Origin: Anaerolineae bacterium | Lineage (GTDB): Bacteria; Chloroflexota; Anaerolineae; JAFGEY01 | NCBI GenBank assembly: GCA_016783145.1 | Contig: JADHXD010000003.1 | Span: 6,437-70,436 of the forward strand | Direction of reading: 5' to 3' | DNA length: 64,000 bases | In this document: positions 41,568-63,244 of the stretch, piece after piece | Position numbering within the stretch: the first letter of the stretch is position 1 | Layout: every line of letters starts with the position of its first letter | Translations under genes and position numbers: made by a program | The notes under the pieces: generated by a model | Seen by the model: the letters and a program-made list of their open reading frames with translations, nothing else | The model's database searches: none | Told to the model about the DNA's origin: nothing

Positions 41568-41569
41568 CA

Positions 41570-43186: not shown

Positions 43187-43196
43187 GGAGGTCAAG

Positions 43197-43541: not shown

Positions 43542-43602
43542 GCGTCTGCTAGCCCAACAGCACGGCGATCGTACGAGCACCGGATGGGTAGGAGTGTGAG
43601 CA

Positions 43603-44358
43603 TTGAGCAAATGGGTCGTTTTGGGCATCCTCGTCGCGGCATTGGCGGCTTGCACGGCGCAGCCGGGGCCAGCGCCAACGGTTCGTCTCGAGTCGCCAGA
43701 AGATGGTGTGCACGTCGTCTTGGGCGAGCGCGTGTTGGTTCAGTCTGTTGCGCAGGGAGAACAGGGCGTCGTCAAGACAGAACTGTGGGCGGACGGGAGG
43801 CTATACGAAGTTGAGCATTCTGGGGAGCCGGAAGGCCAGCCGCTGTTGGATGCGATCCATATCTGGGAGGCCTCGTCGATCGGCACGCACACGCTGTACC
43901 TCAGGGCGCACAGTTCGGATGGGCAGGTCTCCGAGCCGATCAGCGTGACCGTCTACGTCGTGGAACCCGAGCCCACACCGACGAGTGAACCCACCTCTGT
44001 GCCCACCGCGATCGTCGACAGCTCGTGCGATCCGTCAGCACGGTTTGTGGAAGACGTCACCGTGCCAGATGATTCGCTGTTCAACAGCGGGGTCAGATTC
44101 ACCAAGACGTGGCGCCTCCGGAATGATGGCGAGTGCGCGTGGGAGCCGGGCACAAAGTGGGTGTTCATCGGCGGAGACCAGTTGGATGCCCAGTCCCCCG
44201 CAGACGCAGAACTGGCCGAGCCCGGCCGGATCGTAGATCTGAGCATGGACATGGTTGCCCCCGGCGCACCCGGGACGTACAAGAGCTACTGGCGTCTCCA
44301 ACGCCCCAATGGCGACTTTTTCGGGGATCAGGCGTACGTGCGGATCATTGTCCCCTGA
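43603..44358 (+). CDS. Lipoprotein with Ig-like and NBR1-type Ig-like (FW) domains
   Basis: Lipobox LAAC; FVEDVTVPD...FTKTWRLRNDGECAW...APGAPGTYKSYWRL. Confidence 0.85.
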   Translation: MSKWVVLGILVAALAACTAQPGPAPTVRLESPEDGVHVVLGERVLVQSVAQGEQGVVKTELWADGRLYEVEHSGEPEGQPLLDAIHIWEASSIGTHTLYLRAHSSDGQVSEPISVTVYVVEPEPTPTSEPTSVPTAIVDSSCDPSARFVEDVTVPDDSLFNSGVRFTKTWRLRNDGECAWEPGTKWVFIGGDQLDAQSPADAELAEPGRIVDLSMDMVAPGAPGTYKSYWRLQRPNGDFFGDQAYVRIIVP

Positions 44359-44615: not shown

Positions 44616-44644
44616 TTGACTTGCACGAGAAGACAGGGTATAAT
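44616..44644 (+). promoter_or_regulatory. Sigma70 promoter of the signalling cluster
   Basis: TTGACT-17 nt-TATAAT. Confidence 0.75.
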
Positions 44645-44713
44645 GAATACGTGCGTCTTTTCGGATCGAACGGGATGGGCTGGACCGTTCCCGGACAGAA
44701 GAGCGAGAGCAAA

Positions 44714-45547
44714 ATGGCGCTGAAGGGTAATCTTCAGGACTTTGGTACGACACAGCTCCTGAACTTGGTCCACATGGCACGAAAAACAGGATCTCTACAG
44801 CTCAGCAAGACCTCCGACGTCGCAGAGCTCTATTTTCGTGAGGGAAGGTTGATCCACACCCTGATGACTGGGAGCGATGGTCTGCTCACCAGCATGTTGG
44901 TCCGGAGCGGCAAGCTGTCGTCAGAGCAGGCCAGAGCGATTCAGATGCGGGCCAAAGAGCAAGACGACAAGCGACTGGCCTTGATCTTGATCCAGAATGG
45001 ATATATCTCCAAGACGGATGTCGTACAAAGTGTGACGCGATATATGCTGGACACGGTGTATCGACTCTTTACGTGGACAGAGGGACAGTTCTACTTTGAG
45101 CCCAACAAGCAGCCCGAGCACACTCGCATCACCGTCCCGATCGAGCTGGGCAATGTCATTATGGAGGGCAGTCGCCGCATCCAAGAGCTGGAGCGGCTGC
45201 AGGACGAACTGCCAGATCTGAACATGGCGCTCAAGTTCACGGATCGACCTGATGCGAAACTGAGGAACATCAGCCTGAGCCCGGTCGAGTGGAAGGTTGT
45301 CTCTTACGTCAAACCGACGAACACGATCCGCCAGATTGCCCAGGCCAACAAGATGACCGATTTCCAGATCCGCAAGACGGTCTACGGGATGCTGCAGGCA
45401 GGGCTCGTTGAGCTCATCAGGCCGCCGGATGGGGCCAGACCCAGTGGCAGACCATCTGCCAGCTCGGCTCGGCGATCAGGAGCCACAGCGCCGTCCGTGA
45501 AGCGCGGTGTGATTCACCGGTTGATCGACCGCATCAAGAGACTGTAG
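44714..45547 (+). CDS. DUF4388 (PATAN-like) domain protein with C-terminal HTH
   Basis: MALKGNLQDF..QLLNLV...KTGSL; LFTWTEGQFYF; MEGSRRIQE. Confidence 0.85.
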   Translation: MALKGNLQDFGTTQLLNLVHMARKTGSLQLSKTSDVAELYFREGRLIHTLMTGSDGLLTSMLVRSGKLSSEQARAIQMRAKEQDDKRLALILIQNGYISKTDVVQSVTRYMLDTVYRLFTWTEGQFYFEPNKQPEHTRITVPIELGNVIMEGSRRIQELERLQDELPDLNMALKFTDRPDAKLRNISLSPVEWKVVSYVKPTNTIRQIAQANKMTDFQIRKTVYGMLQAGLVELIRPPDGARPSGRPSASSARRSGATAPSVKRGVIHRLIDRIKRL

Positions 45548-45561
45548 AACTGGGGGCCAGG

Positions 45562-46110
45562 ATGCAGACGGTCAAGATGGTCGTCACAGGACCATTCAAC
45601 GCAGGCAAGACGCAGTTCATCCGCTCGATCAGCGAGATAGATGTCGTCTCGACCGAACGCAGGATTACGAGCACACCCGAAAAGGTCAAGGATGAGACCA
45701 CGGTTGCTATGGACTTTGGGCGCATCACGGTGGACGAAGACCTGATCCTCTACCTCTTTGGGACGCCGGGCCAGAAACGATTTGATTTCATGTGGGAGAT
45801 CCTGTCGGAGGGCATGCTGGGTTTCATCGTGCTCATCGACAGCGCACGCCCGGAGACATTTCGGGAAGCGCGACGAATCCTCGAGATATTCCGCGGGTAT
45901 GCGCCCACCCCGTATGTCGTCGCGGCAAACAAGCAGGACTCGCCTGACGCGTGGTCAGCAGAAGACCTGCGCATCGCACTCAAAATCGCGGAGGATGTAA
46001 AGGTCTTGCCTTGCGTGGCCACGGACAAGGAGTCCGTGAAGAACATCCTGCTGGAACTGCTGTACTCGATCCTGGAGGTCATGGGAGAGGAAGAACTCGA
46101 AGGCGTCTGA
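45562..46110 (+). CDS. MglA/CvnD-like small GTPase
   Basis: G1 GPFNAGKT, TTVAMDFG, G3 GTPGQKRF, G4 NKQD. Confidence 0.9.
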   Translation: MQTVKMVVTGPFNAGKTQFIRSISEIDVVSTERRITSTPEKVKDETTVAMDFGRITVDEDLILYLFGTPGQKRFDFMWEILSEGMLGFIVLIDSARPETFREARRILEIFRGYAPTPYVVAANKQDSPDAWSAEDLRIALKIAEDVKVLPCVATDKESVKNILLELLYSILEVMGEEELEGV

Positions 46111-46198
46111 GAGCGGCCCTTCTCGTGACTGAGCGACCACCGGTCTGGAACTGATCTGCTCCCTCCGATGTCAAGCAGCAAAGCCTTGGAGGCTTGTA

Positions 46199-46993
46199 TT
46201 GAGCTCCATCGTCACCACCGAGGGAATCGTCCATTATGAGATGGACGGGCGAGGAGCGCCCGTTCTGTTGCTGCACGGATGGATTAGCTCGTGGGCCGTA
46301 TGGCGCGAGACGATGATCCATATCGCTGAACAGCAGCGCTTCAGAGTCTACGCCCTCGACTTTTGGGGGTTTGGCGAATCGGCCAAGGAAAAGACGCCGC
46401 CATTCAAGATCAGCTCCTATGTCTCTATGGTTGAGCAGTTCATGGAGATCATGGGCATTCAGAGCGCTCCGGTTATCGGGCACTCAATGGGAGGCACCGT
46501 CTCTCTGTGCCTCACCCTCGCGCACCCAACGCGTGTGCGCAAAGTGGCCGTGGTGGGCTCGCCCATCGTGGGGAGCTCGCTCAACGTCCTGCTGAAACTC
46601 GGTTCAGTGCGCTGGATTGCCAACGCACTGTTCAGGATCCCTGCCGCACTCCGTCTCGTCATCTGGTACATTCTGGCTGGCGACTCGAGGACAGTGCAGA
46701 GGATGATCTTTCGAGACGTGTCTCGGGTGAGTGTGGAGTCTTTCTTTCGAAGTATTGGCGACCTGTGGCGCACAGACCTGCGCCAGGGACTCGAACAGAT
46801 CAGCGTGCCCACGCTGGGCATCTTTGGCGAGCACGACAACATCGTCCATCCCAACCAATCCAGAGACCTCGCCACAGGAGTGCCTCACGCCCGCATCCAG
46901 ATGATGCCAGGTTCGCGCCACTTTCCTATGCTCGACGAGCCCGAGCTGTTTCGCAAGGCCCTGCTTGACTTTTTGATGGATCAAGATGGATAA
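46199..46993 (+). CDS. Alpha/beta hydrolase with intact catalytic triad
   Basis: LLHGW, GFGES, nucleophile elbow GHSMGG, GEHD, RHFPM. Confidence 0.9.
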   Translation: MSSIVTTEGIVHYEMDGRGAPVLLLHGWISSWAVWRETMIHIAEQQRFRVYALDFWGFGESAKEKTPPFKISSYVSMVEQFMEIMGIQSAPVIGHSMGGTVSLCLTLAHPTRVRKVAVVGSPIVGSSLNVLLKLGSVRWIANALFRIPAALRLVIWYILAGDSRTVQRMIFRDVSRVSVESFFRSIGDLWRTDLRQGLEQISVPTLGIFGEHDNIVHPNQSRDLATGVPHARIQMMPGSRHFPMLDEPELFRKALLDFLMDQDG

Positions 46994-47729
46994 TCGAACA
47001 TTAGGTCAGAGCATACGCTCTCGCGGGAGCGCAGATGTGACTGAAAGCCACAGAGAATGGACGGCGGGCCACGACAACGGGACGGGCTACCACTGGCCCA
47101 ACAAGATGGGGCGGATGCTGCTCCTGGCCTTGGAGGATGTGCTGGGCACAAACGGCGTCAATGCCGTGCTCAACCTGGCCAAGCTTCGCCACCGCGTGAA
47201 CAACTACCCGATCAACAACCTGGAGCTTCAGTTCGACTTTGGGGAACTGAGCAAGATCATGCAGGCCCTTGAAGACGTGTATGGCCCACGCAGCGGGCGC
47301 AGCCTGGCAATCCGGGCCGGGCGGGCGGGTTTCAAGTATGGGTTGAGGGATTTCGGCTCTCTGCTCGGCCTGGCTGACCTGGCCTTCCGGCTGCTCCCCC
47401 TGAGCATGAAGCTCCGGGTTGGGTTGAACGCCATGGGAGATACCTTTAACAACTTCACGGACCAGCGTGTCCGTGTGGAAGAAAAGGTCGGTCACTTTGT
47501 TTACTCGATCGACCGCTGTCCGGTATGCTGGAGTCGGCGTTCGGACAGACCGTGCTGCTATGCGGCTACGGGCTTGCTGCAAGAGATGTTGACCTGGATC
47601 AGCAACGGAAAGGGCTTTGACATTCAAGAGGTCGCCTGTATTGCCACCGGAGACTCGGCTTGTACCTTTGTCATCGACAAACGCCCTCTCGGCCAGGGAC
47701 CTACCGAGGGTCTGCGCGATGGGATCTGA
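46986..47729 (+). CDS. V4R domain protein
   Basis: GRAGF, CPVCW, PCCY, EVACIATGDSACTF; alternative start 47037. Confidence 0.85.
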   Translation: MDNRTLGQSIRSRGSADVTESHREWTAGHDNGTGYHWPNKMGRMLLLALEDVLGTNGVNAVLNLAKLRHRVNNYPINNLELQFDFGELSKIMQALEDVYGPRSGRSLAIRAGRAGFKYGLRDFGSLLGLADLAFRLLPLSMKLRVGLNAMGDTFNNFTDQRVRVEEKVGHFVYSIDRCPVCWSRRSDRPCCYAATGLLQEMLTWISNGKGFDIQEVACIATGDSACTFVIDKRPLGQGPTEGLRDGI

Positions 47730-47763
47730 GGGGGGGTAAACACGTTCTGACTGGAACGAAGAG

Positions 47764-49020
47764 ATGAAACGGGTTGTCATCCTGGACAATCGACATATCT
47801 ACCCGTTCAATGAGCCGGCACGAGAACTGCGGATCATGAACAAGCCTCTCAAGGTGCACCAGAGAGATATGCTGGTGGATTGCTGTGACTCGGTCATCGA
47901 GTGCGAGCGATTTGACCAAATCCCTCGTGCAGATGAGTCGGAAATGGTAGTCTATCAGGACAATCTGTTCTTTGACCAACCGTTTATCGATTCCTTCATC
48001 GGCGAGGCCCGAAAGCGCGACAGGGCCTGCCAGGTCGCGTTTTCCCACGATGACCTGGCGATCACCAAGCACGCGCTCTACCTCCAAGACGACATCCGCC
48101 TCAAAGGCGACGTTTACGTCGGAAACCTGTGGTACTTTCCCCGAGGTGTTCGAGATGATCCTGAGCCCCTGGTCATAGACACCCAGGCCTGCGAGATTGG
48201 GTACTACCACATACCCACCTACATGGCTCACGAAATGGGAGAGATGGTCTACTCTGTCCCGCTGCGTGCCTTTCTCTCCATCGAACACTGGTTTCACGTC
48301 TTCCTGGCCAACACGCCCTTTGGCATTTTCGCTGATGGTGCCCGCATGGAAGCCGATGCGAAACGGGTCACAGCGCGCCTGCGGCTGCTGCTGCAGGGAA
48401 TGTGGGAGCGCAAGCAGGCGCTTTCCACATCCAAGCTGGTGGTCGTGGGCAAGAACACCAAGATCATGCCTACTGCACAGATACTCGGACCGACGTTCAT
48501 CGGCGACAACTGCTACATAGGTCCAGGCGTGGTCATCCAGAACAGCATCATCGGCAACAATGTCAACTTGATGCAGGGCGCCCATGTCATGCTGAGCGTG
48601 GTCAGCGACAACTGCTATCTGCCCTTCCGAGCCGCGATCATGATGAGCACGCTTATGGAACGGTGTATTGTGGCACAGAATGCTTGCCTGCAGATGTGTG
48701 TGATCGGGAGGGGAACGTTCATCGGGTCAGGAACAACCTTCACGGATTTCAACCTGATCCCCAAGCCTGTTCGCACCTTGCGAGGTGACAAGCTTCAGCC
48801 CACGGGGTCAACCGTAGTCGGTGGCTGTGTGGGACACAACTGTCGCATTGGTGCGGGGCTGGTCTTCTACCCCGCGCGGATCGTCGAGTCCGACACCGTG
48901 CTGTTGCGCTCTGACCAGCGAGCGGTGATTGACAAGAATGTGACCTATCAGCAGAGCGATCACCACGTGTTAAGAGATGGCAACCTGCACAAGCCATTGT
49001 ATCGCCTTGACCGGGCCTAG
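47764..49020 (+). CDS. GlmU-like protein with left-handed beta-helix (hexapeptide) repeats
   Basis: ILGPTFIGDNCYIGPGVVIQNSIIGNN; VGHNCRIGAG; no GxGTR nucleotidyltransferase motif. Confidence 0.8.
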   Translation: MKRVVILDNRHIYPFNEPARELRIMNKPLKVHQRDMLVDCCDSVIECERFDQIPRADESEMVVYQDNLFFDQPFIDSFIGEARKRDRACQVAFSHDDLAITKHALYLQDDIRLKGDVYVGNLWYFPRGVRDDPEPLVIDTQACEIGYYHIPTYMAHEMGEMVYSVPLRAFLSIEHWFHVFLANTPFGIFADGARMEADAKRVTARLRLLLQGMWERKQALSTSKLVVVGKNTKIMPTAQILGPTFIGDNCYIGPGVVIQNSIIGNNVNLMQGAHVMLSVVSDNCYLPFRAAIMMSTLMERCIVAQNACLQMCVIGRGTFIGSGTTFTDFNLIPKPVRTLRGDKLQPTGSTVVGGCVGHNCRIGAGLVFYPARIVESDTVLLRSDQRAVIDKNVTYQQSDHHVLRDGNLHKPLYRLDRA

Positions 49021-49111
49021 CCTGCCTTGATCGAGATGTGTGGGTCTCGGTCGGAACACAGATATGGGCTACCTTTCTCGACTCTTTTTCACCGCTGCAC
49101 GCCTCTAGTTG

Positions 49112-49179
49112 AGGTGCCAGGCACTTGGGTAATCGACAGGGAAAGATGATCATCATCATCTGGCAAGTGCCTGGCACCT
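49112..49179. repeat. Second copy of the AGGTGCCAGGCACTT palindromic repeat, with a 36-nt loop
   Basis: AGGTGCCAGGCACTTG (49112-27) ... CAAGTGCCTGGCACCT (49164-79). Confidence 0.8.
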
Positions 49180-49242
49180 TCAGTGCTGAGATTGGTTTTG
49201 GCCTGCTCGCTATGCCTTCCCAGATGATCGGAGGAGACCATC

Positions 49243-50136
49243 ATGAGTAAGGGGAGAATACTCGTTGTAGAGGACGATTTCGACATCTCTAACTTGTTGC
49301 GCATCTACTTTGACTCACAGGGGTACGAGGTAAGCGTAGCTCCGAAAGGCAAGGATGCGCTAGAGATGTGTCGCCGCAGTTTGCCCAACGTGATCGTACT
49401 GGACATTCAGCTTCCAGACATCGATGGGTACCAGGTCTGTCGCCAACTGCGTGGGAATCTGCGTACCAGTCACATACCCATCCTCTTTTTGACACAGCGC
49501 GACGAACGCAGCGACAAGATCGCGGGCTTGCAGCTTGGGGCAGATGACTATATCACCAAGCCGTTTGACATCGAAGAGTTGAAACTGCGCATTCAGAACG
49601 CCATCAGCCGCGCACAGTGGGAAAACCTGACCAGTCCGACCACCGGTCTGCCCAGCGGCAAACTCATCGAAGAGCAGCTACGGCTGCTTATGCGGCGTAA
49701 GGCCTGGGTCGTCCTCTACATCGGCATCAACCACATCAATGGCTTCAACGAGGCCTACGGCTTTGTTGCCGGAGACGATGTCTTTCGCTTTGCGACGATG
49801 GTCTTGACAGACGGTGTGGATGAGCATGGAACAAACAGTGACTTTGTCGGCCATGTGGGGGGTGCAGACTTTATCGTGATCTCGGATCAGGAGCACGCTG
49901 GGGCGATCGAGGAATACATCACCAAACGGTTCAAGAACGAAGTGGGTACTTTTTACTCCTTCCGCGACCGAGAACGCGGATACATCCTGCTGGATAATAG
50001 AGCAGGAGGCCAGAGGCAAGTGCCGTTGATGTCGCTGGCCATCGGCGTTGTGAACGCAAAGACGGCTCACTTTGCCGACATCCGCGAGATCACCGAGGTC
50101 GCAGCCGCAGAGCGGCGCAAAGTGATCGACGGGTAA
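49243..50136 (+). CDS. Response regulator with degenerate GGDEF domain
   Basis: VVEDD, LDIQLP, KPF; SPTTGLP, FNEAYG, HVGGADF. Confidence 0.88.
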   Translation: MSKGRILVVEDDFDISNLLRIYFDSQGYEVSVAPKGKDALEMCRRSLPNVIVLDIQLPDIDGYQVCRQLRGNLRTSHIPILFLTQRDERSDKIAGLQLGADDYITKPFDIEELKLRIQNAISRAQWENLTSPTTGLPSGKLIEEQLRLLMRRKAWVVLYIGINHINGFNEAYGFVAGDDVFRFATMVLTDGVDEHGTNSDFVGHVGGADFIVISDQEHAGAIEEYITKRFKNEVGTFYSFRDRERGYILLDNRAGGQRQVPLMSLAIGVVNAKTAHFADIREITEVAAAERRKVIDG

Positions 50137-50164
50137 TCCGACCTCGATCCAAGAGGCAGCTCGA

Positions 50165-53100
50165 GTGAACGAACCACGCAGTCCTTCCGACAAGTCAAGC
50201 CGCAGATCTCACACGACCTGGGTATGGGCCATCGCCATCGCCAGCCTGCTTGCGGCCGCAACCGGCCTCTATCTCGCAGCCTGGCAACGCGACAGCTCGT
50301 GGCAGTGGGCTTTTGCTGCCGCCCTGGCGTATCTGGTACCCGTTACCCTGGCTGCCCTATCCCTCGGCTGGCGTGACAGCATGGTCACGGCAGGGATCGG
50401 GGCCTTGACGATCATCCCCCACGTCTGGCAGAGCTGGCGGCTGGGCAGACCATCAGGAATGATCGCGGGACTGGTCATCGTGGCTTTGCTCCTGCCTGCG
50501 TGGGCTCACTTGATGGGCACGCGCGCGGCATCCCAGCGGCGCGCAGGCACTCGAGTGCTGCGCCTGGGTCTGCGCCCCAGACCGGTAGAGCAACTCGCCC
50601 ACCTGGTGGACATTGGGAACGCCTTTCGCGCGGGCGAGTCCTTGCCCGAGATCATGGCGCTCACAGCTCAGGCCATCAGCAAGGGCGTGGGGGTTGGCAG
50701 AACGGTGATCAGCCTGACCGAGAGAGAACCTCCGGTCCTGCACAACGTGGCTGCTGTCGGCGTTGCCCCCTCTGCCTGGGAGCAGATCCAGTCCGTACAG
50801 TGCCCGCTGTCTGCCGTTCTGGACGTCATCCAGGACCGCTATCGCATCAGCCAGTCTTACTTTGTGCCCTCTTATGATCTGCCCACGTGGATGGATGCAC
50901 TGCGCACCGGGCTGTTCGTGCCAGCGGCCGATTCCGGGCAGGGCGAAGGGCTCTTGATCGTGCCGATGTACGGTTCGACTCAGAGGATCACTGGGTTCAT
51001 CGCCGTAGACCAGCCACCGAGCGGACGAGTCTCCGATCGGTCTCTGGTCGAGGTCCTGCAGGTGTTCGCTCACCAGGCTGCGATCTCGATGGAGAACTAT
51101 CGGCTGCGGAACGACCTGCAGCGGGGTAGAGATGATCTGGAGCTGTATACCAGCGTCGGACAGGTCATCACCTCAGACCTCGATCTCGAACGCTCCCTGG
51201 AACAGATCGTTGCTGCCAGCGTGCGGTTGCTGAACAGTGACTATGGCGCCCTGTTCACTTGGGATGAAGAGAGCGAAGGATGGGTGCCCACTATCGCACA
51301 CGGCTTTTCGGTGGGGGATACGCGGCTGTTCAGCGAATCCCAACTGAAAGAGCTGATCGCGCTCGTCGTCATCGGGGGACGTCCCCTCGTCCTCTCGGAC
51401 ACCAGCGCCGATCCAAGATTCAGCAACCTGCTCGCGGGGAAACTCCCGATTCGATCCTTGCTCCTCGTTCCGGTTGTAGAACGGCAGAAGGGGATCGGGA
51501 TGCTGCTGGCTGCTACTTCTCAGGCCAGTGTCTTTGACCAAACCGATCAGGCCTGGCTCTCAGCGCTGGCCAATCAGGCATCCGCCGCCATCCAGAACAA
51601 CCGCCTGCACAAACAGGCTGCGACCCGAACGAAGCAGTTGGCGACGCTGACTGTCCTCGGGGAAATGATCCTCTCCGGCCCAGATATTGACACGGCACTG
51701 GCCCGGATCGTGGACGAGGTACAGGCGATATCGAACGCCGAGTCCGGGGTGCTGCTGTTGATGGAGGAGGGAAAGCTTGCACCTCGCCTGTCTTTTGGCC
51801 TCGCTCGCGATCGGGAAACGAGCCTCTCTCAGGAACTCGGTCAGGGCACCGCTGACTGGGCAGCCCTGACCGGTTCGAGCGTCCTGATCCCCGACGTCAA
51901 GAAAGACAGGCGGTACTCGTTGGCAGTCGGCCCGGCGACGCGCTCTTTGCTTTGCGTGCCCCTCAAGAACCCTGACGACAACGTTATTGGGGTGATCGAG
52001 GTCGCCAACCCAACGGACAAGCGCGCGTTCACAGATCAAGACCGAGAGCTGTTGGAATCGATCGCACCTTTTGCGGTGATCGCCCTGCAGAACGCTCAGC
52101 TCCATCAGCAGACGGTAGACCACATTGCCGATCTTTCCTCGCTCTATGAGGTGGGCCAGGCGATCACCTCAAGACTGGACATCGAGGATACGCTCCAGAT
52201 CGCTGTCGACGAGACCGCACGCCTGACGAGTGCTGCGAGAAGTCAGATCCTGCTTGTCGATGAGGAGTCCCGCCAGGTCACCCACCTGGTGCAGAGGGGA
52301 TATAGTGCTCGCTTCCCGGCTGCGATAGCCTATGAGCAAGCTACCCGGGGACTGCATAGCTGGGTGCTCCGGGAAAAGATCCCCACCCTATCGGCTCACG
52401 TATACGAGGATGAGCGCATGCGCGGTGCGCCGGTGGAGCACCTGACAGGGCCAGATGCGCGTTCGCTCATCATCGCCCCGTTGTTGATCAAAGGTTACCC
52501 GGTGGGCACGTTGAGCGCGGTCCGGACAGCCGCTGCAGACCCATTCACTGAGCGCGAGCTGGAGCTACTCAATACGCTGGCCGGACAGGCTTCGATTGCC
52601 ATCGAGAACGCGCGCTTCTTTGAGGAACGCAAGCGCCAGATTACGGAACTGAGCATCTTGAACCAGATGGGGCAGTCTCTCAGCTCCTCTCTAGAGCTGG
52701 CAGATTTGCTGGATCTGATCTACCGGCAAGTCGCACGGGTGATGGATGCGCAGAACTTTTACATCGCGCTTTGGGATCCTGAACAAGAGGTCATCAGTTT
52801 TCCGCTTGCCTACGAACACGGGGTACAGCAGGCCGGTCCCAACCACGAGTCCCTTTCAGAGGAATGGCTTCCCAGGCAGGGCCGGATGGGGCTGACAGAA
52901 CGTATCATCCAGACAAAGAAGCACCTCTGGCTCCCGAGCCAGGTTCAGGAATGGCTGGAAAAGGAGGGTGTGGAGGAGATCGGCGAGCCCGCGCTTTCCT
53001 GGCTGGGAGTCCCCATCCTGGCAGATGACCGCGTACTGGGCGTGATCGCGGTGCAGAGTCTTGAGCAGGAGAACGACTACGATCAGGGGGATCTCGATCT

Positions 53101-55696: not shown

Positions 55697-55739
55697 CGTT
55701 GGCATAGGCGCGAGAACTGACTCGCGGCAGGGAGTCTAC

Positions 55740-58700
55740 GTGCTGGTCTGGTTAGAAGAGAACCAAGAGAATATCCTGGAGCACTGGCTGGCTGCCCTGC
55801 GCGGCCAAGGCGGGGCGATCGCTCGCCTGGTAGAGGACGACGATCGACTGCGAGAAGAGCTTATGCCGCTCTACCGGGCCGTCGCTAGCGCAGTCACAGA
55901 CCAGGGCACAGCGCTCGCCCTGGATCTGACCGGATGGGTGCAGCGATGCAGGCAGACATGGAACGCGTCTTTGGCCGACATGCTCCAGGTTGTGTTTCCC
56001 CTGAGGACGGCCCTTGAGACGCTGGCGCCGCACGACGACACAGAGCAGTCTGCCGGCTTTTGGCGCAGCGTGCTCTCTGGCATGGACCAGACGGTTGTCG
56101 CCCTCTCTGAGATCCACACGGGGGCAATGGAGCAGGTACTGACCGAGCGCTTGCAGGAAGCAGAACGCCTCAATGCCAGCCTGATCCAGGCGACCAAAGA
56201 GGCAGATAGAACGCTGGTTCAGCTACGATCGATCTATGACATCTCCCAGACACTGGCGACGGCGCTCAACAACGTCGAGGACGTCTTTACCGGTCTTGTG
56301 CAGAAGCTGGGAGCGGCGCTCCAGGCACACCACTGTGCGCTCTGGTTGAGTGACGTGGGTACACTGCATATCGTGGCTGCGTACGACGAAACCAACTTGC
56401 CGCACATCAGGGTGACAGAGCAAGATAAAGAGTGCTCGCTTGGCGCCATCCTTCGCTCCGGGAGATCTCAGGTGCTTTGCCGAGGCGAGACCACGCGTCC
56501 GGGCGACGAGGAATTGATGGCCAGACTACGGGCCCATACACTGCTGCTTGCGCCGCTGGCTGTCCAGGAGATCCCGATCGGGGTACTGACGCTGGGTCGG
56601 GGCAGCGAGTCCAGGGCGTTTGACTCGACTGAAGTAGACCTGGTCGAGTCGGTGGTCAGCCAGGCGGCCATCGCCATCCAGAATGCGGGCCTGTACGAGG
56701 AAATCCGCTCCTTGAATCGCAGCCTGGAGGAGCGTGTCGCCGCACGCACCCAGGAGGTAGCCAGAGAGAAGGAGCGAATGGGGACGCTCCATGCGCTGGG
56801 CCGTGAGTTGAGCATCAGCCTGGATCTGAACTATGTCCTGGAAAAGACCCTGCAGTTGGTCACCCAAGCTGTGGGCGCCCAGCAGGGCTCGATCGTCTTG
56901 CTGGACCGCGAGACGGATGACCTGGTGTACGGTGCCCGACTGGACGAGCACGGCCCGCTGCCCCTGGACGAAAAACGTGTGCCACTAAAGCCCGAGTCCG
57001 ATGCAGCCGGGTGGGTGCTCCGAAGCCGGGAGCCTGCGCTGATCGACGACGCATCCACGGACAAACGGTGGCTGCCCAGTGCGAACGGCGCGCCTGCAGT
57101 CCGGTCCTTGATCGCTGCGCCACTGATCGTGGGAGATGACATCCACGGCGTGCTCCTGATCTTGGACGACAGGCCAGGCGTCTTTGACGAGTCTCAGCTC
57201 AGGCTGGTCGCCGCTGCAGCGCAGCAAGTCGCGCAAGCGATCAGCAACGCGCAGCTCTACACCTATGTACGGAGCTCCGCCGAACGGTTGGGGCAGTTAC
57301 TTCGCCGCGAGCAGGAGGAGAGGTCCAAGAGCCAGGCTATCCTACAGTCGATCGCCGATGGGGTGATCGTGAACGACACGCAGCACAGGGTGATCGTCTT
57401 TAATGCAGCGGCTGAAGAGATACTGGACACCACGGAAGAGAAGGTCCTGGGCCAGGATGTCTGGCAGTTGTTCGACGTGTTCGAGGAGAGCGGGCGACGA
57501 ATCGCGCTGAACGCACTGGAAACCATCAGCTCGTCTCCACTTGGTTCGATGGGTGAGGTCATTGAGACGACGCTCGAGATCGACAGGAAAATCGTGAGCG
57601 CTCACATGGCGCCGGTTGTCACTGACACCCAGGAGCTGCTGGGCGTCGTCACCGCCCTGCGTGACATCACGCGAGAAGTGGAGGCCGACCGTGCCAAGAG
57701 CGAGTGGGTATCTACCGTCTCTCACGAGCTGCGCACTCCGCTGACGTCCATCAAGGGCTATACCGACCTGATCTACGCCGGAGCTGTCGGGCCAACGAAC
57801 GAAAGCCAGAAACGGTTCCTGGACATCATCAAGAACAACATCGACCGGCTGACCGCGCTGATCAGCGATCTGCTGGATATATCGCGCATCGAGATGGGAC
57901 GTATTAGGCTCAGGATCCAGCCCCTTGACCTCGTCGAGGTCGTTCAAGAGGTGGTCGAATCTCTGCGCGGGCAGATCCAGGCCAAAGGCATCAAGCTGGA
58001 ACTGGCACTGCCCAATCACGTCGACGAGATCATGGGAGACCGGACCCGCGTGACCCAGATCGTGACCAACCTGATCAACAATGCCTACAAGTTCACGGAC
58101 AGTGGATGGATCCGCGTGTCGCTTGCGCCGATCGGAGGAGCAGCGCGGTTGGATGTTGCCGACAGCGGGATCGGCATTTCGGCTGAGGACCTTGGCCGTA
58201 TCTTTGAGCGCTTTTACCAAGCAGATACCGCCAATATGGACGGCCGAGGAGGGGCAGGACTGGGGCTTTCGATCACCAAGGAGCTGATCGAGCTGCACGG
58301 CGGGCGCGTCTGGGTCAAGAGCGAGCTGGAAGTCGGCAGCACGTTCACCGTCGTCCTCCCTTCGGTGACACAGGAATTGCCGTCGTCCCTTGTGGCAGAA
58401 CTGCCCGCCGGAGCGAAAAAGATATTGGTGGTAGATGACGAGCGGGATATCCTGGCTATGCTGCGCCACGGCCTGACCATGCAGGGCTATAACGTGATCA
58501 CGGCTTCGACCGGGGGGGAGGCGATCGTCAGGGCGATCAGAGATCAGCCTGACCTGATCACCCTAGATATCTTGCTGCCAGACCGGCATGGTTTTGACGT
58601 GTTGCAGGAACTCAAGGCTCGCTCGGATACCTCGCACATTCCGGTCATCATCCTTTCCGTCGTTCAAGATGAGGGCAGCGGCTACCGGCTGGGAGCAGTA

Positions 58701-59165
58701 GATTACATTGTCAAGCCGATCGGCGAACAGCGTCTGGTGGACAGCATCTCTCGCGTGCTCGAGCGCAGAGGCAGGATCTTGGTCGCGGAGGACATCCCAG
58801 ACACCGCAGAGCTGCTGGTCGGGCTGCTGAGAAAGCACGGGTATGAGCCGATGCACGCCGTGGACGGATATGAGACCCTTCTGTTAGCCCGTCGCGAACG
58901 TCCCGGGCTGATCCTCCTGGATCTGCAGATGCCCGGTATGGACGGATACGAGGCACTGACGCGACTCAAGAAGGATCCCAAGACGCGCGGGATCCCCATC
59001 TTGGTAATGTCGGCCCACGCTGCCGACCCGGTTCAGGAACGGCTCAAGGTGCTGGCCATGGGCGCAGAGGATTTCCTGACCAAGCCTTTCTCCATAGAAA
59101 AGCTGTTGACCGGGATCGCCAAAGTCAGCTTTGACGAGAATGAGTCCGAACGCACGATGAATTGA
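55740..59165 (+). CDS. Hybrid histidine kinase (RsbRD_N-like, GAF, GAF, PAS, HisKA, HATPase, REC, REC)
   Basis: ENILEHWL N-terminal helical domain; SHELRTPL; NAYKF; two receivers; GGGAG before GTG 55740. Confidence 0.9.
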   Translation: MLVWLEENQENILEHWLAALRGQGGAIARLVEDDDRLREELMPLYRAVASAVTDQGTALALDLTGWVQRCRQTWNASLADMLQVVFPLRTALETLAPHDDTEQSAGFWRSVLSGMDQTVVALSEIHTGAMEQVLTERLQEAERLNASLIQATKEADRTLVQLRSIYDISQTLATALNNVEDVFTGLVQKLGAALQAHHCALWLSDVGTLHIVAAYDETNLPHIRVTEQDKECSLGAILRSGRSQVLCRGETTRPGDEELMARLRAHTLLLAPLAVQEIPIGVLTLGRGSESRAFDSTEVDLVESVVSQAAIAIQNAGLYEEIRSLNRSLEERVAARTQEVAREKERMGTLHALGRELSISLDLNYVLEKTLQLVTQAVGAQQGSIVLLDRETDDLVYGARLDEHGPLPLDEKRVPLKPESDAAGWVLRSREPALIDDASTDKRWLPSANGAPAVRSLIAAPLIVGDDIHGVLLILDDRPGVFDESQLRLVAAAAQQVAQAISNAQLYTYVRSSAERLGQLLRREQEERSKSQAILQSIADGVIVNDTQHRVIVFNAAAEEILDTTEEKVLGQDVWQLFDVFEESGRRIALNALETISSSPLGSMGEVIETTLEIDRKIVSAHMAPVVTDTQELLGVVTALRDITREVEADRAKSEWVSTVSHELRTPLTSIKGYTDLIYAGAVGPTNESQKRFLDIIKNNIDRLTALISDLLDISRIEMGRIRLRIQPLDLVEVVQEVVESLRGQIQAKGIKLELALPNHVDEIMGDRTRVTQIVTNLINNAYKFTDSGWIRVSLAPIGGAARLDVADSGIGISAEDLGRIFERFYQADTANMDGRGGAGLGLSITKELIELHGGRVWVKSELEVGSTFTVVLPSVTQELPSSLVAELPAGAKKILVVDDERDILAMLRHGLTMQGYNVITASTGGEAIVRAIRDQPDLITLDILLPDRHGFDVLQELKARSDTSHIPVIILSVVQDEGSGYRLGAVDYIVKPIGEQRLVDSISRVLERRGRILVAEDIPDTAELLVGLLRKHGYEPMHAVDGYETLLLARRERPGLILLDLQMPGMDGYEALTRLKKDPKTRGIPILVMSAHAADPVQERLKVLAMGAEDFLTKPFSIEKLLTGIAKVSFDENESERTMN

Positions 59166-59172
59166 GCAGACC

Positions 59173-59796
59173 GTGATGCCTGGGATAGAGACAAGCCAAA
59201 AGGAGAACCATACGGCCTTTAAGACCGTCGAGCAGACGAACGGGGCACGTATCGTTGAGCTGGTCGCCCTGGAACGCATAGGCCGCGAGCTGAATTCCAC
59301 GTTCGACTTGGATCAGGTCCTTGATCTCTTGATCCGCAAAGTCGTGGACCTGACACCCGCTGTGTGCGGCAGCGTGCTGCTCATCGATGGACAGGTGGAG
59401 ACGCTGCAGCCTCGTGCCTGGTATGGATACACCGCCCCCCAGGTGGTGACCAACTTGATGAGCAATGCTCACAAGTATTCTCCTGATGGTGCCCAGATCG
59501 CCATCACCGGCCAACACGAGAATGGACGCCTGATGATCCAAGTCCGAGATGCGGGCATTGGCATCTCGGCGACGGACCAGCGGCGTCTGTTCACGCGCTT
59601 CTTTCGGACGAATGACGCCGTCCTGACCCAAGAGAGCGGCACCGGCCTGGGACTCGCTATCTGTCGCGAGATCATGCAGCGCCATCACGGCGAGATCCAG
59701 GTTGAGAGCGAGGTGGGCAAAGGGAGCACCTTTCGCCTGGTACTTCCCGTCGATGCCGCTACCGACGGGAAGGCTCTAGAGAGGGACGCACGGTGA
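59173..59796 (+). pseudogene. Internally deleted histidine kinase (start of a GAF fused to HATPase_c; no HisKA)
   Basis: IGRELNSTFDLDQVL...AWYGYTAP joins directly to QVVTNLMSNAHKYS; no H-box. Confidence 0.65.
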
Positions 59797-61991
59797 CCAC
59801 AGAGACGGTCCTGCGAGGCGACGCACAAGAGACGACGATCTCGCGTGAGATCTGGCAGCGCGTGCTGCCTCATCTCACCTGTCTCCAGCGCGTGCTGGAA
59901 GAATTGACGGCCGTTTTCCAGTGCCATCTGGACCTGACGTCCTTCAACCTGTACCTGCTCGATCAGGAGGCCCAAGTCCTCCGATCGGTGGCTTTGTGGA
60001 ATGCAGGACCGTTCAGCAGTGAGACGATCTCTGTTGGAGAGAGCGTTTGCGGGCAGGTCGCCCAGACCGGTGTCCTGCGCAGCATTCCCGACGTCACAAA
60101 GGATCCTGAAGCGGCTGGCGCTGTTTCTGCGCAGGCGCGCTCGGAGCTGGTGGTTCCGCTCGCGGTCGGCGATCAGATCCTCGGCGTGGTTGATCTGACA
60201 CGCGGACAGCCCAACGCCTTTTCCAGGGAGGATGAGGACCTGATCACCTCCATTGCCGGACAGGTTGCCAGCGCGCTCGGTTATGCGTTGCGCTATGCCA
60301 AGCTAGAAGAGGCGGTGCAAGAGTCAGAGCAGCAGGCCGAAGCGCAAACGCGAGAGATACGCGCCGAGCGCGATCGAGCCAGCTTTCTCTACCAGGTGAC
60401 CCAGGAGATGACGTCCACCCTGGAGCTGGAACGCGTTCTAAACCGGACGCTGGCCCGAGTCAGCCAAGCGCTGGGAGTCCAGCAAGCGTCGATCATGCTG
60501 CTCGATGCAAGTTCGGGACGCTTGATCTACCGGGCGGCGCTGGGACGCCCTATCGCGCTACCGGAGGGCGGCAAGCAGACGCGCTACAGGCGCGGCCTCG
60601 GGCTGGCTGGATGGGTGCTGGAACACAACGAGTGCGTGATCATCAACGGTCTCGATCAAGACTCGAGATGGGACACCGATCCCAAGCAGAGAGGACAGAG
60701 CCAGTCGGCATTGGCGATACCGCTGAGCGCCGAAGGCGACGTCCTGGGGGTGATGCTGCTTTTTCACCCCGAACCGAACTACTTTTGCGAGGACCACATC
60801 CAACTGGCGACCGCAGCGGCAAACCACATCACCGTCGCCGTCACGAACACCGAGCTGTACAGGTTGATCAGGGAGCAGGCCGCAAGATTGGGGCAGATGT
60901 TGCGCGAGCAGCGCAGTATTGCTTCTCAGAGCATGGCCATCTTGGCGTCCATTGCCGACGGCGTGGTCGTCACCGACGAGAGCGGCACAATCACCCTGGT
61001 CAACGATGCCGTACGGCGCGTGGTTCGCGGCACAAACCGAGATCTGGTCGGATGCCCGATCTCTGAGGTGTTCCGCGGTTTTTCAGGGCAGGCACAGGAA
61101 GCCGTGCAACAAGCCATGATCGAGGTCACAGAGCAGCTTGAGGACCACGAACAGGAGGCATTCGTTCCCGTATCCGTGAAATTGGCCCGGGAAAAGCAGG
61201 TCATCCAGGCGTCTCTTATGAGGATGGTCGATGAGGGGCAGCAGTCCACGGGCACGGTGATCGTCCTTCGCGACGTGACGCACGAGCAAGAGATCGAGCG
61301 CGCGAAGAACGATATCATCTCGATCGTCGCGCACGAACTGCGCATGCCCATGACCTCGATCAGAGGGTATACGGATCTGATGCTGCAAGGGGCGATGGGA
61401 ACACTGACCGAGGGCCAACAGCACTTTCTGAGCGTCGTCAAGTCCAATGTCAATCGACTGTCCCAGCTCATCAGCGACCTGCTCGATATCACGCGTATCG
61501 AGGCCGGAAGCGTCGAGCTAGAGCTCGTTCCGCTGCAACTGGCAGAGATCGTGCCTGAGGTCTGCGAGAGCGTCGCCGAAGCGGTAGAGGAACGGGGCCT
61601 GACGCTCAACGTCGACGTGACGACGCCGCTCCCGATCGTGCGTGCCGACCGGAATCGCATCATCCAGGTCCTCGTCAACCTGTTGAGCAACGCTTACCGG
61701 TACACGCCTCCCGGTGGTTCGATCCAGGTGTCCGTTCGTCCACTGGGGAATACCGTACTGGTCCAGATCGCAGACACCGGCATTGGGATTGCCAAGGAAG
61801 ATCAGAGGAAGGTATTCGAGCGGTTCTACCGAGTCGATCACGATCTCGTCAAGAAAGAGTCGGGCACGGGGTTGGGTCTGTCCATTGTGAAATCGCTGAT
61901 AGAGCTGCACGGCGGAAGGTTGTGGCTCGAGAGCGAACTGGGACGGGGAAGCACATTCAGCTTTGCGCTTCCTCTAGCAACTGAACGCTAG
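59793..61991 (+). CDS. Sensor histidine kinase (GAF-GAF-PAS-HisKA-HATPase)
   Basis: AHELRMPM, NAYRY, DTGIGI, GTGLGL. Confidence 0.92.
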   Translation: MTTETVLRGDAQETTISREIWQRVLPHLTCLQRVLEELTAVFQCHLDLTSFNLYLLDQEAQVLRSVALWNAGPFSSETISVGESVCGQVAQTGVLRSIPDVTKDPEAAGAVSAQARSELVVPLAVGDQILGVVDLTRGQPNAFSREDEDLITSIAGQVASALGYALRYAKLEEAVQESEQQAEAQTREIRAERDRASFLYQVTQEMTSTLELERVLNRTLARVSQALGVQQASIMLLDASSGRLIYRAALGRPIALPEGGKQTRYRRGLGLAGWVLEHNECVIINGLDQDSRWDTDPKQRGQSQSALAIPLSAEGDVLGVMLLFHPEPNYFCEDHIQLATAAANHITVAVTNTELYRLIREQAARLGQMLREQRSIASQSMAILASIADGVVVTDESGTITLVNDAVRRVVRGTNRDLVGCPISEVFRGFSGQAQEAVQQAMIEVTEQLEDHEQEAFVPVSVKLAREKQVIQASLMRMVDEGQQSTGTVIVLRDVTHEQEIERAKNDIISIVAHELRMPMTSIRGYTDLMLQGAMGTLTEGQQHFLSVVKSNVNRLSQLISDLLDITRIEAGSVELELVPLQLAEIVPEVCESVAEAVEERGLTLNVDVTTPLPIVRADRNRIIQVLVNLLSNAYRYTPPGGSIQVSVRPLGNTVLVQIADTGIGIAKEDQRKVFERFYRVDHDLVKKESGTGLGLSIVKSLIELHGGRLWLESELGRGSTFSFALPLATER

Positions 61992-62036
61992 GGATCGCAG
62001 GTGGGCTTGTACGCAGATCGGATGATAGGTGGTGAA

Positions 62037-62417
62037 ATGGCTAAAATACTGATTGCCGAGGACGAGAAAGACATTCGAGAACTGATCGTTTTCAGCCTAA
62101 CCTTTGCTGGCTTTGAAGTGGTCTCTGCCATCGACGGGATAGAAGCGGTTGAAAAGACGCTGCAGACCAAGCCAGACCTGATTATGATGGACGTCCGCAT
62201 GCCAAGGATGACAGGGTATGAAGCGTGTGCAAGGTTGAAGGCGAACGAGAAGACCAAGCACATCCCTGTGATCATGCTGTCGGCCAAAGGTCAAGAGTCC
62301 GAGATCCAGACAGGCCTGGATGTAGGTGCGTACGAATACATCCTCAAGCCCTTTGCGCCCGACGAACTCATCCAACGAGTGAAAGACATCCTAGACCTCT
62401 TGCCTGAAAGGGAGTGA
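62037..62417 (+). CDS. Single-domain (CheY-like) response regulator
   Basis: MAKILIAEDE, MDVRMP, LSAKG, KPF. Confidence 0.93.
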   Translation: MAKILIAEDEKDIRELIVFSLTFAGFEVVSAIDGIEAVEKTLQTKPDLIMMDVRMPRMTGYEACARLKANEKTKHIPVIMLSAKGQESEIQTGLDVGAYEYILKPFAPDELIQRVKDILDLLPERE

Positions 62418-62455
62418 ACGATTTCTACCGTCCTGAACTGTGCTGAGGTTGTGGT

Positions 62456-63244
62456 ATGAGCGCCCTGGTCCTGGACAATGGCGTCGTACACTATGAATAC
62501 TTTGGGCGAGGCCGTCCGCTGATATTCATCCACGGCTGGCTGGGCTCGTGGAGGTATTGGGTGCCGACAATGGACGCGCTGTCCGAAGACCGCCGCGTCT
62601 ACGCCTTCGATCTCTGGGGGTTTGGCGACTCGGACAAGTCAAGGCCCCGGTACGATGTGGCCGACTATGTTCGTTTGCTGCACCGGTTTATCGATGAGCT
62701 CGGCATCTTTGGCCCAGTCCCACTGGTGGGTCACGCACTCGGTGCTGCAGTGGCGGTGTCCTTTGCCAGGGAACATCCCGAGTACATCGATCGGGTCATG
62801 GCCGTCAGCCTGCCATTGACTGGAGAATCGATCAACCAGCGGTTCCTGTCTGGTGGGGGTTCTCTCTTTGACCGCGTGTTGGGTCGCTCTCCTATTGCTG
62901 GCTATGCCGATGTGGAAAAGGAAGCCAGCCGGACCGCGCCCGACGCCATTCAGCAAAGCGTCAAATCCGTTATGGGGATGGATATGCGTCCTATACTGAA
63001 CGCTCTCAGCGTGCCCCTGCTGATGCTGTATGGCCAGAACGACAACGTCGTCCTCCCTGCAGACGCCAGCGCGCTCAATGGGGCGGGAGAGATGGTGCGC
63101 CTTTTGTCGATGCCCGAGGCCCGGCATTTTCCTATGCTCGACCGAAGCAGTCAATTCAACCGCCTGCTGCTCGACTTTTTGAATTCGCCAGAGGATCTGA
63201 GCGATCTGGAGTTGAAGGACGAGTGGCAGCGACGAATCCGGTGA
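62456..63244 (+). CDS. Alpha/beta hydrolase-fold protein lacking the nucleophile (GHALG)
   Basis: IHGW, GFGDS, GHALGA in place of GHSxG, GQND, RHFPM; paralog of 46199..46993. Confidence 0.88.
   Translation: MSALVLDNGVVHYEYFGRGRPLIFIHGWLGSWRYWVPTMDALSEDRRVYAFDLWGFGDSDKSRPRYDVADYVRLLHRFIDELGIFGPVPLVGHALGAAVAVSFAREHPEYIDRVMAVSLPLTGESINQRFLSGGGSLFDRVLGRSPIAGYADVEKEASRTAPDAIQQSVKSVMGMDMRPILNALSVPLLMLYGQNDNVVLPADASALNGAGEMVRLLSMPEARHFPMLDRSSQFNRLLLDFLNSPEDLSDLELKDEWQRRIR

Follow-up and report, generated by a model that had tools for sequence, protein, structure and literature searches.

The stretch of DNA examined here, called the window throughout, comprises 64,000 nucleotides (nt) from an Anaerolineae bacterium (positions 6437–70436 of contig C41, genome G000; the assembly is 92% complete). 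It contains a cluster of 12 open reading frames (ORFs), all on the plus strand and spanning 44621–63244, which is headed by the genes for a PATAN-domain protein and a small GTPase of the MglA/CvnD type. The cluster is read here, with moderate confidence, as one long signalling operon built around a switch made of the PATAN-winged-helix protein, the GTPase and a Roadblock protein, the gene for which lies on another contig. An initial annotation, made from the letters alone, had described 12 co-oriented and closely spaced genes with named domains behind a consensus-like promoter, and the ORF list and Pfam recover all of these genes and domains:

44616..44644, plus strand: promoter-like site TTGACT-17-TATAAT, sigma-70-like, 11 of 12 positions match
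44714..45547, plus strand: g01, PATAN (DUF4388) protein; the ORF opens at 44621; Pfam DUF4388, E 1.6e-28
45562..46110, plus strand: g02, MglA/CvnD-type small GTPase; Pfam ATP_bind_1, Arf, Ras
46199..46993, plus strand: g03 (ABH1), alpha/beta hydrolase; Pfam Abhydrolase_1, E 6.3e-32; overlaps g04 by 8 nt
46986..47729, plus strand: g04, V4R protein (Bet3/TRAPPC3-type fold); Pfam V4R, 40.4 bits against a cut-off of 31
47764..49020, plus strand: g05, GlmU-like two-domain protein; Pfam Hexapep and LbH
49111..49180, plus strand: perfect 17-bp stem with a 35-nt loop, in the 222-nt gap between g05 and g06
49243..50136, plus strand: g06, REC plus partial GGDEF; REC E 6.3e-30; GGDEF profile positions 6–107 of 161
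50165..55696, plus strand: g07, soluble hybrid histidine kinase, 1843 amino acids (aa); 5 GAF, PAS, HisKA, HATPase, 2 REC (Pfam)
55635..59165, plus strand: g08, hybrid histidine kinase, approximately 1176 aa; 2 GAF, PAS, HisKA, HATPase, 2 REC (Pfam)
59173..59796, plus strand: g09, apparent kinase remnant, 207 aa; HATPase_c only (Pfam)
59793..61991, plus strand: g10, non-hybrid histidine kinase, 732 aa; 2 GAF, PAS, HisKA, HATPase (Pfam)
62001..62417, plus strand: g11, single-domain receiver; REC E 3.5e-30
62456..63244, plus strand: g12 (ABH2), alpha/beta hydrolase, paralogue of g03; Pfam Abhydrolase_1, E 5.3e-25

The intergenic distances from g01 to g12 are 14, 88, −8, 34, 222, 28, −62, 7, −4, 9 and 38 nt, where the −62 depends on the uncertain start of g08. 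Spacing is short or negative except for the 88 nt ahead of g03 and the 222 nt ahead of g06. The true start of g08 is probably downstream of 55696, and its orthologues in loci L031, L033, L034 and L035 are 1121–1132 aa in length. Orthologues of g01 begin with MALKGNL, so that its start is placed at the ATG at 44714 and the promoter-like site lies approximately 70 nt upstream. In 16 of 22 in-class loci, as well as in L056 from another class, an equivalent site that also matches at 11 of 12 positions is found 42–135 nt ahead of the PATAN gene. The background for such a score is 2 of 300 random 250-nt segments of the window, and promoter-like matches over 20 kb are not enriched (6 observed, 4.9 expected). 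The promoter proposed initially is thereby retained as a site that recurs ahead of the first gene.

The 222-nt gap between g05 and g06 is the site at which relatives have a gene resembling acyl-acyl carrier protein (ACP) reductases. Its 17-bp stem is present in both the minimum free energy and the centroid folds and a terminator-like match is located at 49172–49188, while the gap as a whole (49021–49242) is no more stable than shuffled sequences (z −1.31). The stem-loop may act as a terminator or a processing site, or it may be a scar. In one RNA library, two short contigs fall inside g02 and g05; none spans two genes and the rest of the cluster is uncovered.

Conservation of the cluster in the class and beyond

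The 40 relatives in which presence and absence were scored belong to many families of the class; 21 of them have the GTPase and 19 do not. Gene neighbourhoods were taken from 22 in-class loci of 20 kb each, with L050 omitted as a 61%, paralogue-like match, and from a second in-class set of 30 loci of Anaerolineae-type species genomes. Denominators of 21 and 19 in the first set are the loci with enough fetched sequence for the gene in question, and those of 15 are the loci that have REC-GGDEF. As the relatives share descent, the presence/absence split is given as a pattern and not as a statistic.

The GTPase orthologues of the 21 relatives are 73–90% identical, and the genes around them follow a fixed order. 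This is PATAN/DUF4388, GTPase, ABH1, V4R, a protein with nucleotidyltransferase (NT) and left-handed beta-helix (LbH) domains, the reductase-like gene, REC-GGDEF, GAF kinases, REC and ABH2. In the 22 loci, PATAN is directly upstream of the GTPase without exception (22/22), followed by ABH1 (18/22), V4R (16/22), LbH (18/21), the reductase-like gene (12/19) and REC-GGDEF (15/19). GAF kinases come after REC-GGDEF in 14 of 15 loci, and the terminal REC plus ABH2 pair is seen in 11 of 15, three further loci being undecidable at the end of the fetched stretch. The 30 species-genome loci give a similar series: PATAN 30/30, ABH1 18/27, V4R 15/27, LbH 14/21, reductase-like 8/20 and REC-GGDEF 12/19. The nearest named carriers are Anaerolineae, Anaerolineales, Aggregatilineales, Ardenticatenales, Thermoflexus, Bellilinea, Longilinea and Anaerolinea.

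The same gene order in many families makes the cluster more than a chance assembly. The initial annotation had itself named gene order in related genomes as a point at which its proposal could fail, and the order turns out to be conserved in many Anaerolineae families. In addition, at least three sediment metagenome studies (P4, P5 and P6) contain near-identical DNA, besides possible source runs. Upstream of the cluster, positions 41426–44358 encode a GAF-GGDEF protein, the GGDEF motif of which is intact, as well as RsfS and an Ig-like (N_BRCA1_IG) protein. These genes are regarded as flank rather than as part of the system, since it is only in the window's own family that the Ig-like gene is found ahead of the cluster.

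Among 401 genomes sampled from the phylum, 73 give a GTPase match at E 1e-20, a tally that includes genome G076, which is used in no other claim. The orthologues from other Chloroflexota classes are 66–72% identical and only the PATAN-GTPase pair is kept there, with the single exception of L056, where the order is PATAN-GTPase-V4R-LbH-hydrolase. A DUF1385 gene lies directly upstream of PATAN-GTPase in L054 and L055 (Pfam), both from these other classes, and L053 and L059 have an ORF of the same size at this position. Outside the phylum, a Roadblock-PATAN-GTPase trio is found in 9 loci of Aquificota and Actinomycetota, cyanobacterial loci have the GTPase with PATAN, and the actinomycete conservons have the order Roadblock-DUF742-GTPase. 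The best explanation is that the three-part switch of GTPase, PATAN-winged-helix protein and Roadblock is ancient.

The GTPase, the PATAN protein and Roadblock

The GTPase is encoded by a single gene in its own genome and is well conserved, with a mean column identity of 79% over 21 sequences. In these, the motifs G1 (GPFNAGKT), T47, G3 (FGTPGQ) and G4 (NKQD) are invariant or nearly so, and G3 has Gly where Ras has Asp. Ras-like motifs with a replaced G3 Asp, together with the co-occurrence of Roadblock, are the marks of the MglA family. By sequence, the nearest solved structures are an Asgard Arf (1e-10) and MglA (6e-9), and identity to the conservon GTPases is 40–45%, so that its initial placement in the MglA/CvnD class holds. 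In a quick tree of 92 rows, the conservon GTPases group in a clade of their own (SH-aLRT 97), while those of Chloroflexota, cyanobacteria and Aquificota share another (SH-aLRT 99). A paralogous GTPase, 52–57% identical, is encoded in L064–L067 (genomes G022, G003, G011 and G002), where it follows an OmpR-type response regulator; genes for a Ser/Thr kinase that has a beta-propeller, for a PP2C phosphatase and for a DnaJ-VWA protein are located upstream. No copy of this paralogue was found in the genome studied here.

The protein encoded ahead of the GTPase, g01, matches DUF4388 with 99.7 bits against a cut-off of 25 (Pfam). In its model (mean predicted local distance difference test score, pLDDT, 81.5), helices at 58–119 are inserted between the strands at 45–51 and 125–130, and residues 164–239 form a winged helix that is followed by a terminal helix. 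The initial statement that the cluster lacks a DNA-binding regulator is accordingly incomplete: g01 ends in a winged helix, and this part of the protein resembles the conservon exchange factor CvnC/DUF742. In hhalign, the final 90 residues and a profile of 21 CvnC/DUF742 proteins align over their whole lengths (P 9.7e-5, probability 58%), where five controls gave P 0.11–0.48. The PATAN gene also holds the same operon position as CvnC does in the conservons. It is proposed that g01 is an adaptor of the GTPase and possibly its exchange factor.

The best structural match of the winged helix is chain 8fw5_C, an NPRL-type chain of GATOR1 (Z 10.4, root-mean-square deviation (rmsd) 2.1, 75 residues), with MarR-type domains at Z of approximately 6. 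As the likeness to GATOR1 consists of the 75-residue winged helix alone, homology to NPRL-type proteins is not adopted. Binding of cyclic di-GMP by the PATAN insertion is not adopted either, the NCBIfam match being below threshold (20.8 bits against a cut-off of 38). For the fold of the N-terminal part of g01, Foldseek returned no PDB match at E 0.001, comparison with a Roadblock profile in hhalign gave P 0.35, and all scores in the Atlas look-up were at or below 0.79.

The genome has one Roadblock/LC7 (Robl_LC7) gene, of 165 aa, and it lies on contig C82 (L063:8744–10975). Here, Roadblock is followed by a paralogue of the V4R gene (V4Rb, 49% identical to g04) and then by a full-length paralogue of g06 (REC-GGDEFb, 42% identical, its GGDEF degenerate in the same way). 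A Peptidase_MA gene precedes the three. The same trio of Roadblock, V4Rb and REC-GGDEFb is found in 8 of 9 further unlinked loci, and Roadblock adjoins V4R in 13 of 21 genomes. Linked forms occur as well: G034 has PATAN-GTPase-Roadblock-Roadblock-V4R, G009 has GTPase-Roadblock, and in L091 and L104 Roadblock adjoins the GTPase. A Roadblock partner, for which the conservons had served as the initial precedent, thus exists at a second locus, in the company of V4R and REC-GGDEF paralogues.

Further support for a connection between these genes comes from their distribution, as the presence and absence of GTPase, Roadblock, V4R and LbH follow a common pattern in the 40 relatives. Roadblock is present in 20 of the 21 GTPase-positive genomes and in none of the 19 GTPase-negative ones. 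For V4R, the corresponding counts are 21/21 and 1/19, the latter being a weak match, and for LbH they are 19/21 and 0/19.

Hydrolases, V4R, the NT-LbH protein and the kinase block

The two hydrolases were initially described as an active enzyme and a paralogue without a nucleophile, and their motifs agree with this. In g03, the triad of Ser (in GHSMGG), Asp and His is kept in 17 of 17 sequences. In g12, the nucleophile is replaced (GHALGA) and the Asp and His are kept; across 11 orthologues, the nucleophile position is Ala in 6, Gly in 2, Asp in 1 and Ser in 2. The best 60 PDB rows for each hydrolase include epoxide hydrolases, a polyhydroxybutyrate (PHB) depolymerase, an enol-lactonase and meta-cleavage hydrolases. 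RsbQ, D14 and KAI2 are not among these 60 rows for either protein, which does not exclude a family that is unlisted there.

The conserved part of g04 begins near 47088. Three cysteines of the V4R protein are invariant (C144, C157 and C192) and two are nearly so (C147 and C184), and the region that contains them aligns to the zinc-site region of MopR/PoxR, with a match to MopR that is weak (E 0.02). V4R/TRAPPC3 folds have hydrophobic cavities and bind hydrophobic ligands (PMC10933270). A search for longer fusion proteins containing a V4R of the g04 type found none, which is weak evidence. A 2026 preprint describes V4R fused to ParA, and ParA displacing MglA. In L034 (3898–4779), the V4R gene has an insertion of approximately 75 residues just ahead of the last conserved Cys.

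In its model (pLDDT 60 overall), the single-copy g05 combines a divergent nucleotidyltransferase fold with a left-handed beta-helix on its C-terminal side. Residues 1–192 match cytidylyl- and uridylyltransferases (Z 11–13.3), among them 4mnd_A (Z 13.3, rmsd 2.5, 149 aligned) and 1hm0_A (Z 11.6), and residues 223–381 match the LpxD/LpxA-type LbH (Z approximately 13). Nucleotidyltransferases of the GlmU and GMPP type have a Gly-rich nucleotide loop, GxGTR. In g05, an invariant PFNEPAR stands in place of this loop; the N-terminus reads VVILDNRHIYPFNEPAREL, where P14, F15, E17, A19 and R20 are invariant in 17 sequences. The best Pfam name for the protein is LbH_EIF2B, and its likeness to eIF2B epsilon/gamma is taken as one of fold only.

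In relatives, the acyl-ACP-reductase-like gene stands between the LbH and REC-GGDEF genes. Its product matches TIGR04058 (3.5e-40) and the N-terminal part of PigE (1.6e-62), both below their cut-offs, as well as Pfam Shikimate_DH. The gene is absent from L033, the locus of the same genus, and neither the gene nor a remnant of it could be found in the window or in the genome studied here, at its completeness of 92%. The initial idea of ligand processing coupled to ligand sensing fits the reductase-like gene of relatives and the NT and LbH folds of g05, and it stays at the level of a suggestion.

The regulator g06 is 55–83% identical across the class and has the motif GGADF, which in orthologues and the paralogue varies as GADDF, GGDDF, SADDF, GGDNF, AANDF and others. 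Its first metal-binding Asp is replaced, with GIN where the canonical neighbour gene has EID. Judged from these residues, g06 cannot be a diguanylate cyclase. The kinases downstream are arranged differently from locus to locus, from one giant protein of 2400–2900 aa to three genes. In g09, the first 50 or so GAF residues are joined in frame to the HATPase N-box without HisKA; no separate orthologue of it was found in L033, and it looks like the remnant of an internal deletion. The truncated kinase noted initially is therefore real. L033 has an orthologue of g10, 54% identical. The block ends with the receiver g11, whose orthologues begin with MAKIL, equivalent to approximately position 62037, and keep the acidic pocket, the acceptor Asp, the Ser and the Lys in 12 of 12 sequences. 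In the in-class loci, a receiver of this type always lies directly ahead of ABH2. Pfam found no histidine phosphotransfer (Hpt) domain in the 12 genes, so that the term phosphorelay used at first is not borne out.

Two further observations concern other parts of the contig. At 31863–32570 of the window, an ORF of 235 aa combines an ATP-binding cassette (ABC) ATPase (positions 2–79 of 137) with an ABC-2 permease (119–210 of 211) and looks like a deletion fusion. Approximately 5 kb past the end of the window, on the minus strand of contig C41 (L068:6479–8470), lies the gene for a eukaryote-type topoisomerase IB of 663 aa, in which Topoisom_I_N, Topoisom_I and Topo_C_assoc form an architecture that is unusual for a bacterium.

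Interpretation and comparison with known systems

The operon is probably an unstudied bacterial G-protein signalling pathway. By analogy with MfpD and MfpC of mycobacteria, the Roadblock protein would be the GTPase-activating protein (GAP), and the PATAN protein, through its CvnC-like C-terminus, would be the guanine nucleotide exchange factor (GEF). The two V4R proteins may bind a hydrophobic small molecule, which could be made or trimmed by the hydrolase, by the NT-LbH protein and, in relatives, also by the reductase. The GAF/PAS kinases would phosphorylate the REC-GGDEF-like regulator and the single receiver. Together, the kinase and ligand inputs would set the GTP/GDP state of the GTPase or its choice of partner, with an output at the level of proteins or through the winged helix.

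Several observations weigh against this proposal. The 222-nt gap with its strong hairpin makes it possible that g01–g05 and g06–g12 are two transcripts. Short forms with only PATAN, GTPase and V4R exist in the class (L040, L061, L083 and L089), so the block that follows is dispensable. V4R itself is gone from 6 of 22 loci, the same-genus L033 included, and the reductase-like gene was not found in the genome studied here, which is 92% complete. As the relatives are not independent, common descent accounts for part of the shared gene order and phyletic pattern. In addition, Pfam DUF742 was not detected in g01 even at E 10, which makes the likeness to DUF742 a weak one, and since the conservon GTPases fall in a separate clade of the quick tree, the system is probably not a conservon proper.

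A more specific version of the same pathway takes the V4R proteins to be direct, ligand-controlled partners of the Roadblock-GTPase switch, that is, a prokaryotic counterpart of TRAPP in which a lipid-like molecule, made by the enzymes encoded nearby, sets the switch and the degenerate GGDEF regulators couple it to the kinases. The pairs Roadblock-V4Rb and GTPase-(hydrolase)-V4Ra, where V4Ra is g04, are likened here to the arrangement in TRAPP, where a Bet3-type and a longin/Roadblock-class subunit act on a small GTPase. This version is tentative and, as a whole, is considered unlikely.

Alternatively, two unrelated units may lie side by side, a PATAN-GTPase(-V4R) switch and a cluster of two-component and enzyme genes, with their adjacency kept by descent. 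The short forms just mentioned lack the block, and a thiamin pyrophosphokinase gene that is directly after V4R in L040 and after ABH2 in L060 indicates that the block behaves as a unit, gained or lost in one insertion or deletion. The gap and hairpin ahead of g06 suit two units as well, as does the retention of only the PATAN-GTPase pair outside the class. Against this, the REC-GGDEF paralogue is found with Roadblock-V4R in 9 of 10 unlinked loci, the one in the genome studied here included, and its presence at a separate locus ties the REC-GGDEF family to the partners of the GTPase independently of the operon. LbH is confined to GTPase-positive genomes, and the enzymes are interleaved with the switch genes, with ABH1 between GTPase and V4R and overlapping the latter. 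Finally, a promoter as conserved as that of g01 was not found ahead of g06, where an 11-of-12 site occurs in just 1 of 16 loci. Two separate units are, on this evidence, quite improbable.

Doubtful to the same degree is a controller of cell polarity, pili or gliding like MglA-MglB of Myxococcus, in which the GTPase would position a motility machine and the kinases would provide an input of the Frz type. PATAN response regulators of Synechocystis bind the type IV pilus motor, according to a preprint (bioRxiv 10.1101/2021.06.11.447907). A PilB-type ATPase (MshEN plus T2SSE) follows the trio in all five Actinomycetota loci examined, and a Tad/Flp pilus cluster that includes a REC-ParA protein is present in the genome studied here. 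The two Aquificota loci examined, on the other hand, have no pilus link, and in the in-class loci examined the cluster neither contains nor adjoins a motility gene. PilT (TIGR01420) is present in 3 of 41 genomes, and of these G018 alone has the GTPase. In the genome studied here, PilT was not found at E 1e-30; of the two T2SSE matches, the one examined is of the CpaF type, without MshEN, and belongs to the Tad/Flp cluster. The control of polarity, gliding or filament behaviour suggested initially is thus unsupported, with PilT in 1 of 21 GTPase-positive relatives and only a Tad-type pilus in the genome itself. On contig C36 (L159:1344–7098), genes for RcpC/CpaB, REC-ParA, a CpaF-type ATPase and two TadB/C-type proteins lie beside one for a HisKA_3 kinase.

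Very unlikely, finally, is a pathway for the biosynthesis or turnover of a lipid-like small molecule under two-component control, with the GTPase pair as a mere neighbour: g03 appears active by its motifs, g05 is modelled with the NT and LbH folds of GlmU- and GMPP-type enzymes and the reductase-like gene of relatives has its sub-threshold matches to TIGR04058 and PigE, but that gene is absent here and, among the 19 in-class loci with room for it, from 7, g05 has PFNEPAR in place of the Gly-rich loop, 9 of 11 ABH2 orthologues are without the Ser nucleophile, the block contains no transporter, carrier protein or synthase, and conservation is highest in the GTPase and the REC-GGDEF regulator rather than in the enzymes. 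Because a role in pili or polarity is weakly supported in the class, the cluster is read as G-protein-type signalling of a conservon-like kind.

To our knowledge, bacterial Ras-like GTPase systems are understood in two settings only, the MglA polarity switch and, in part, the actinobacterial conservons. The cluster would add a third phylum with a related GTPase switch, fixed here in a much larger, class-wide gene set for which candidate inputs (V4R, the hydrolase pair, NT-LbH and the GAF kinases), a candidate GAP and a candidate GEF can be named. It also provides genomic evidence from bacteria that links the V4R/TRAPPC3 fold, Roadblock and small GTPases, a combination that is discussed for the origin of eukaryotic trafficking. 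The question is testable with a few purified proteins. No description of the cluster was found in the literature searched, although the supplementary tables of Wuichet and Sogaard-Andersen may list such loci. The appendix of one paper (PMC8756737) has DUF4388-GTPase-hydrolase-LbH adjoining nirS in Anaerolinea thermolimosa, without comment.

Among signalling alpha/beta hydrolases are RsbQ, which acts with RsbP, and D14/KAI2 of plants, the latter two with their triad kept. The likeness is that of a small alpha/beta hydrolase adjoining a signalling protein, which here is ABH2 by the receiver; ABH2, unlike D14/KAI2, is mostly without its nucleophile. With the TRAPP core (Bet3/TRAPPC3 plus longin, a Rab GEF) and the Asgard set, the cluster shares the V4R/TRAPPC3 fold, the Roadblock/longin class and a small GTPase occurring together, whereas the link here is genomic only and consists of adjacency and co-occurrence in bacteria. 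Podar et al. (2008) leave the GTPase, Roadblock and operons unmentioned. According to Tran et al. (2024), Asgard GTPase genes are generally not in operons with RB, longin or TRAPPC3 genes, so that this work gave no operon support for the V4R/TRAPPC3-Roadblock-GTPase link (PMC10933270).

The MglA-MglB-RomRX system of Myxococcus and Thermus likewise combines a small GTPase with a Roadblock regulator, and MglA is among the best PDB matches of g02. The sequence relation is distant, however; in most carriers no pilus-retraction ATPase was found, and no Frz/Che genes accompany the cluster.

The conservons and the Mfp system have a related GTPase (40–45%), a Roadblock partner and accessory genes, and the winged-helix protein ahead of the GTPase has a C-terminus like CvnC/DUF742. 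In Mycobacterium smegmatis, MfpC/DUF742 is the GEF and MfpD/Roadblock the GAP (PMC11343762). Histidine kinases and sensory input of the GAF type are also shared (PMC13343842). The differences from the conservons are that the GTPase belongs to another clade (quick tree) and to the phylum Chloroflexota, that Roadblock is unlinked, with no Roadblock and DUF742 genes directly upstream, and that PATAN is fused ahead of the winged helix. Moreover, soluble HisKA-type GAF/PAS kinases (two hybrid, g10 not) lie downstream where conservons have a CvnA-type kinase at the head of the operon, and V4R, two hydrolases, NT-LbH and the REC-GGDEF-like regulator are added.

Also among the closest systems is MglA group 5, described by Wuichet and Sogaard-Andersen (2014). 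In the text of that paper, which contains 0 mentions of V4R or hydrolase, PATAN is a neighbour of some MglA genes of groups 1 and 5, and group 5 occurs in Chloroflexi (PMC4316618). The cluster agrees with group 5 in a G3 motif without Asp, in its occurrence in Chloroflexi and in having PATAN and Roadblock as neighbouring or co-occurring genes; it differs in that the same text describes group 5 neighbourhoods as widely variable and PATAN neighbours as "occasional", whereas the gene set here is larger and fixed class-wide. The best reading of the operon is as the Chloroflexota counterpart of the actinobacterial G-protein systems and of the MglA group-5 modules, to which a ligand-handling set and a kinase block have been added.

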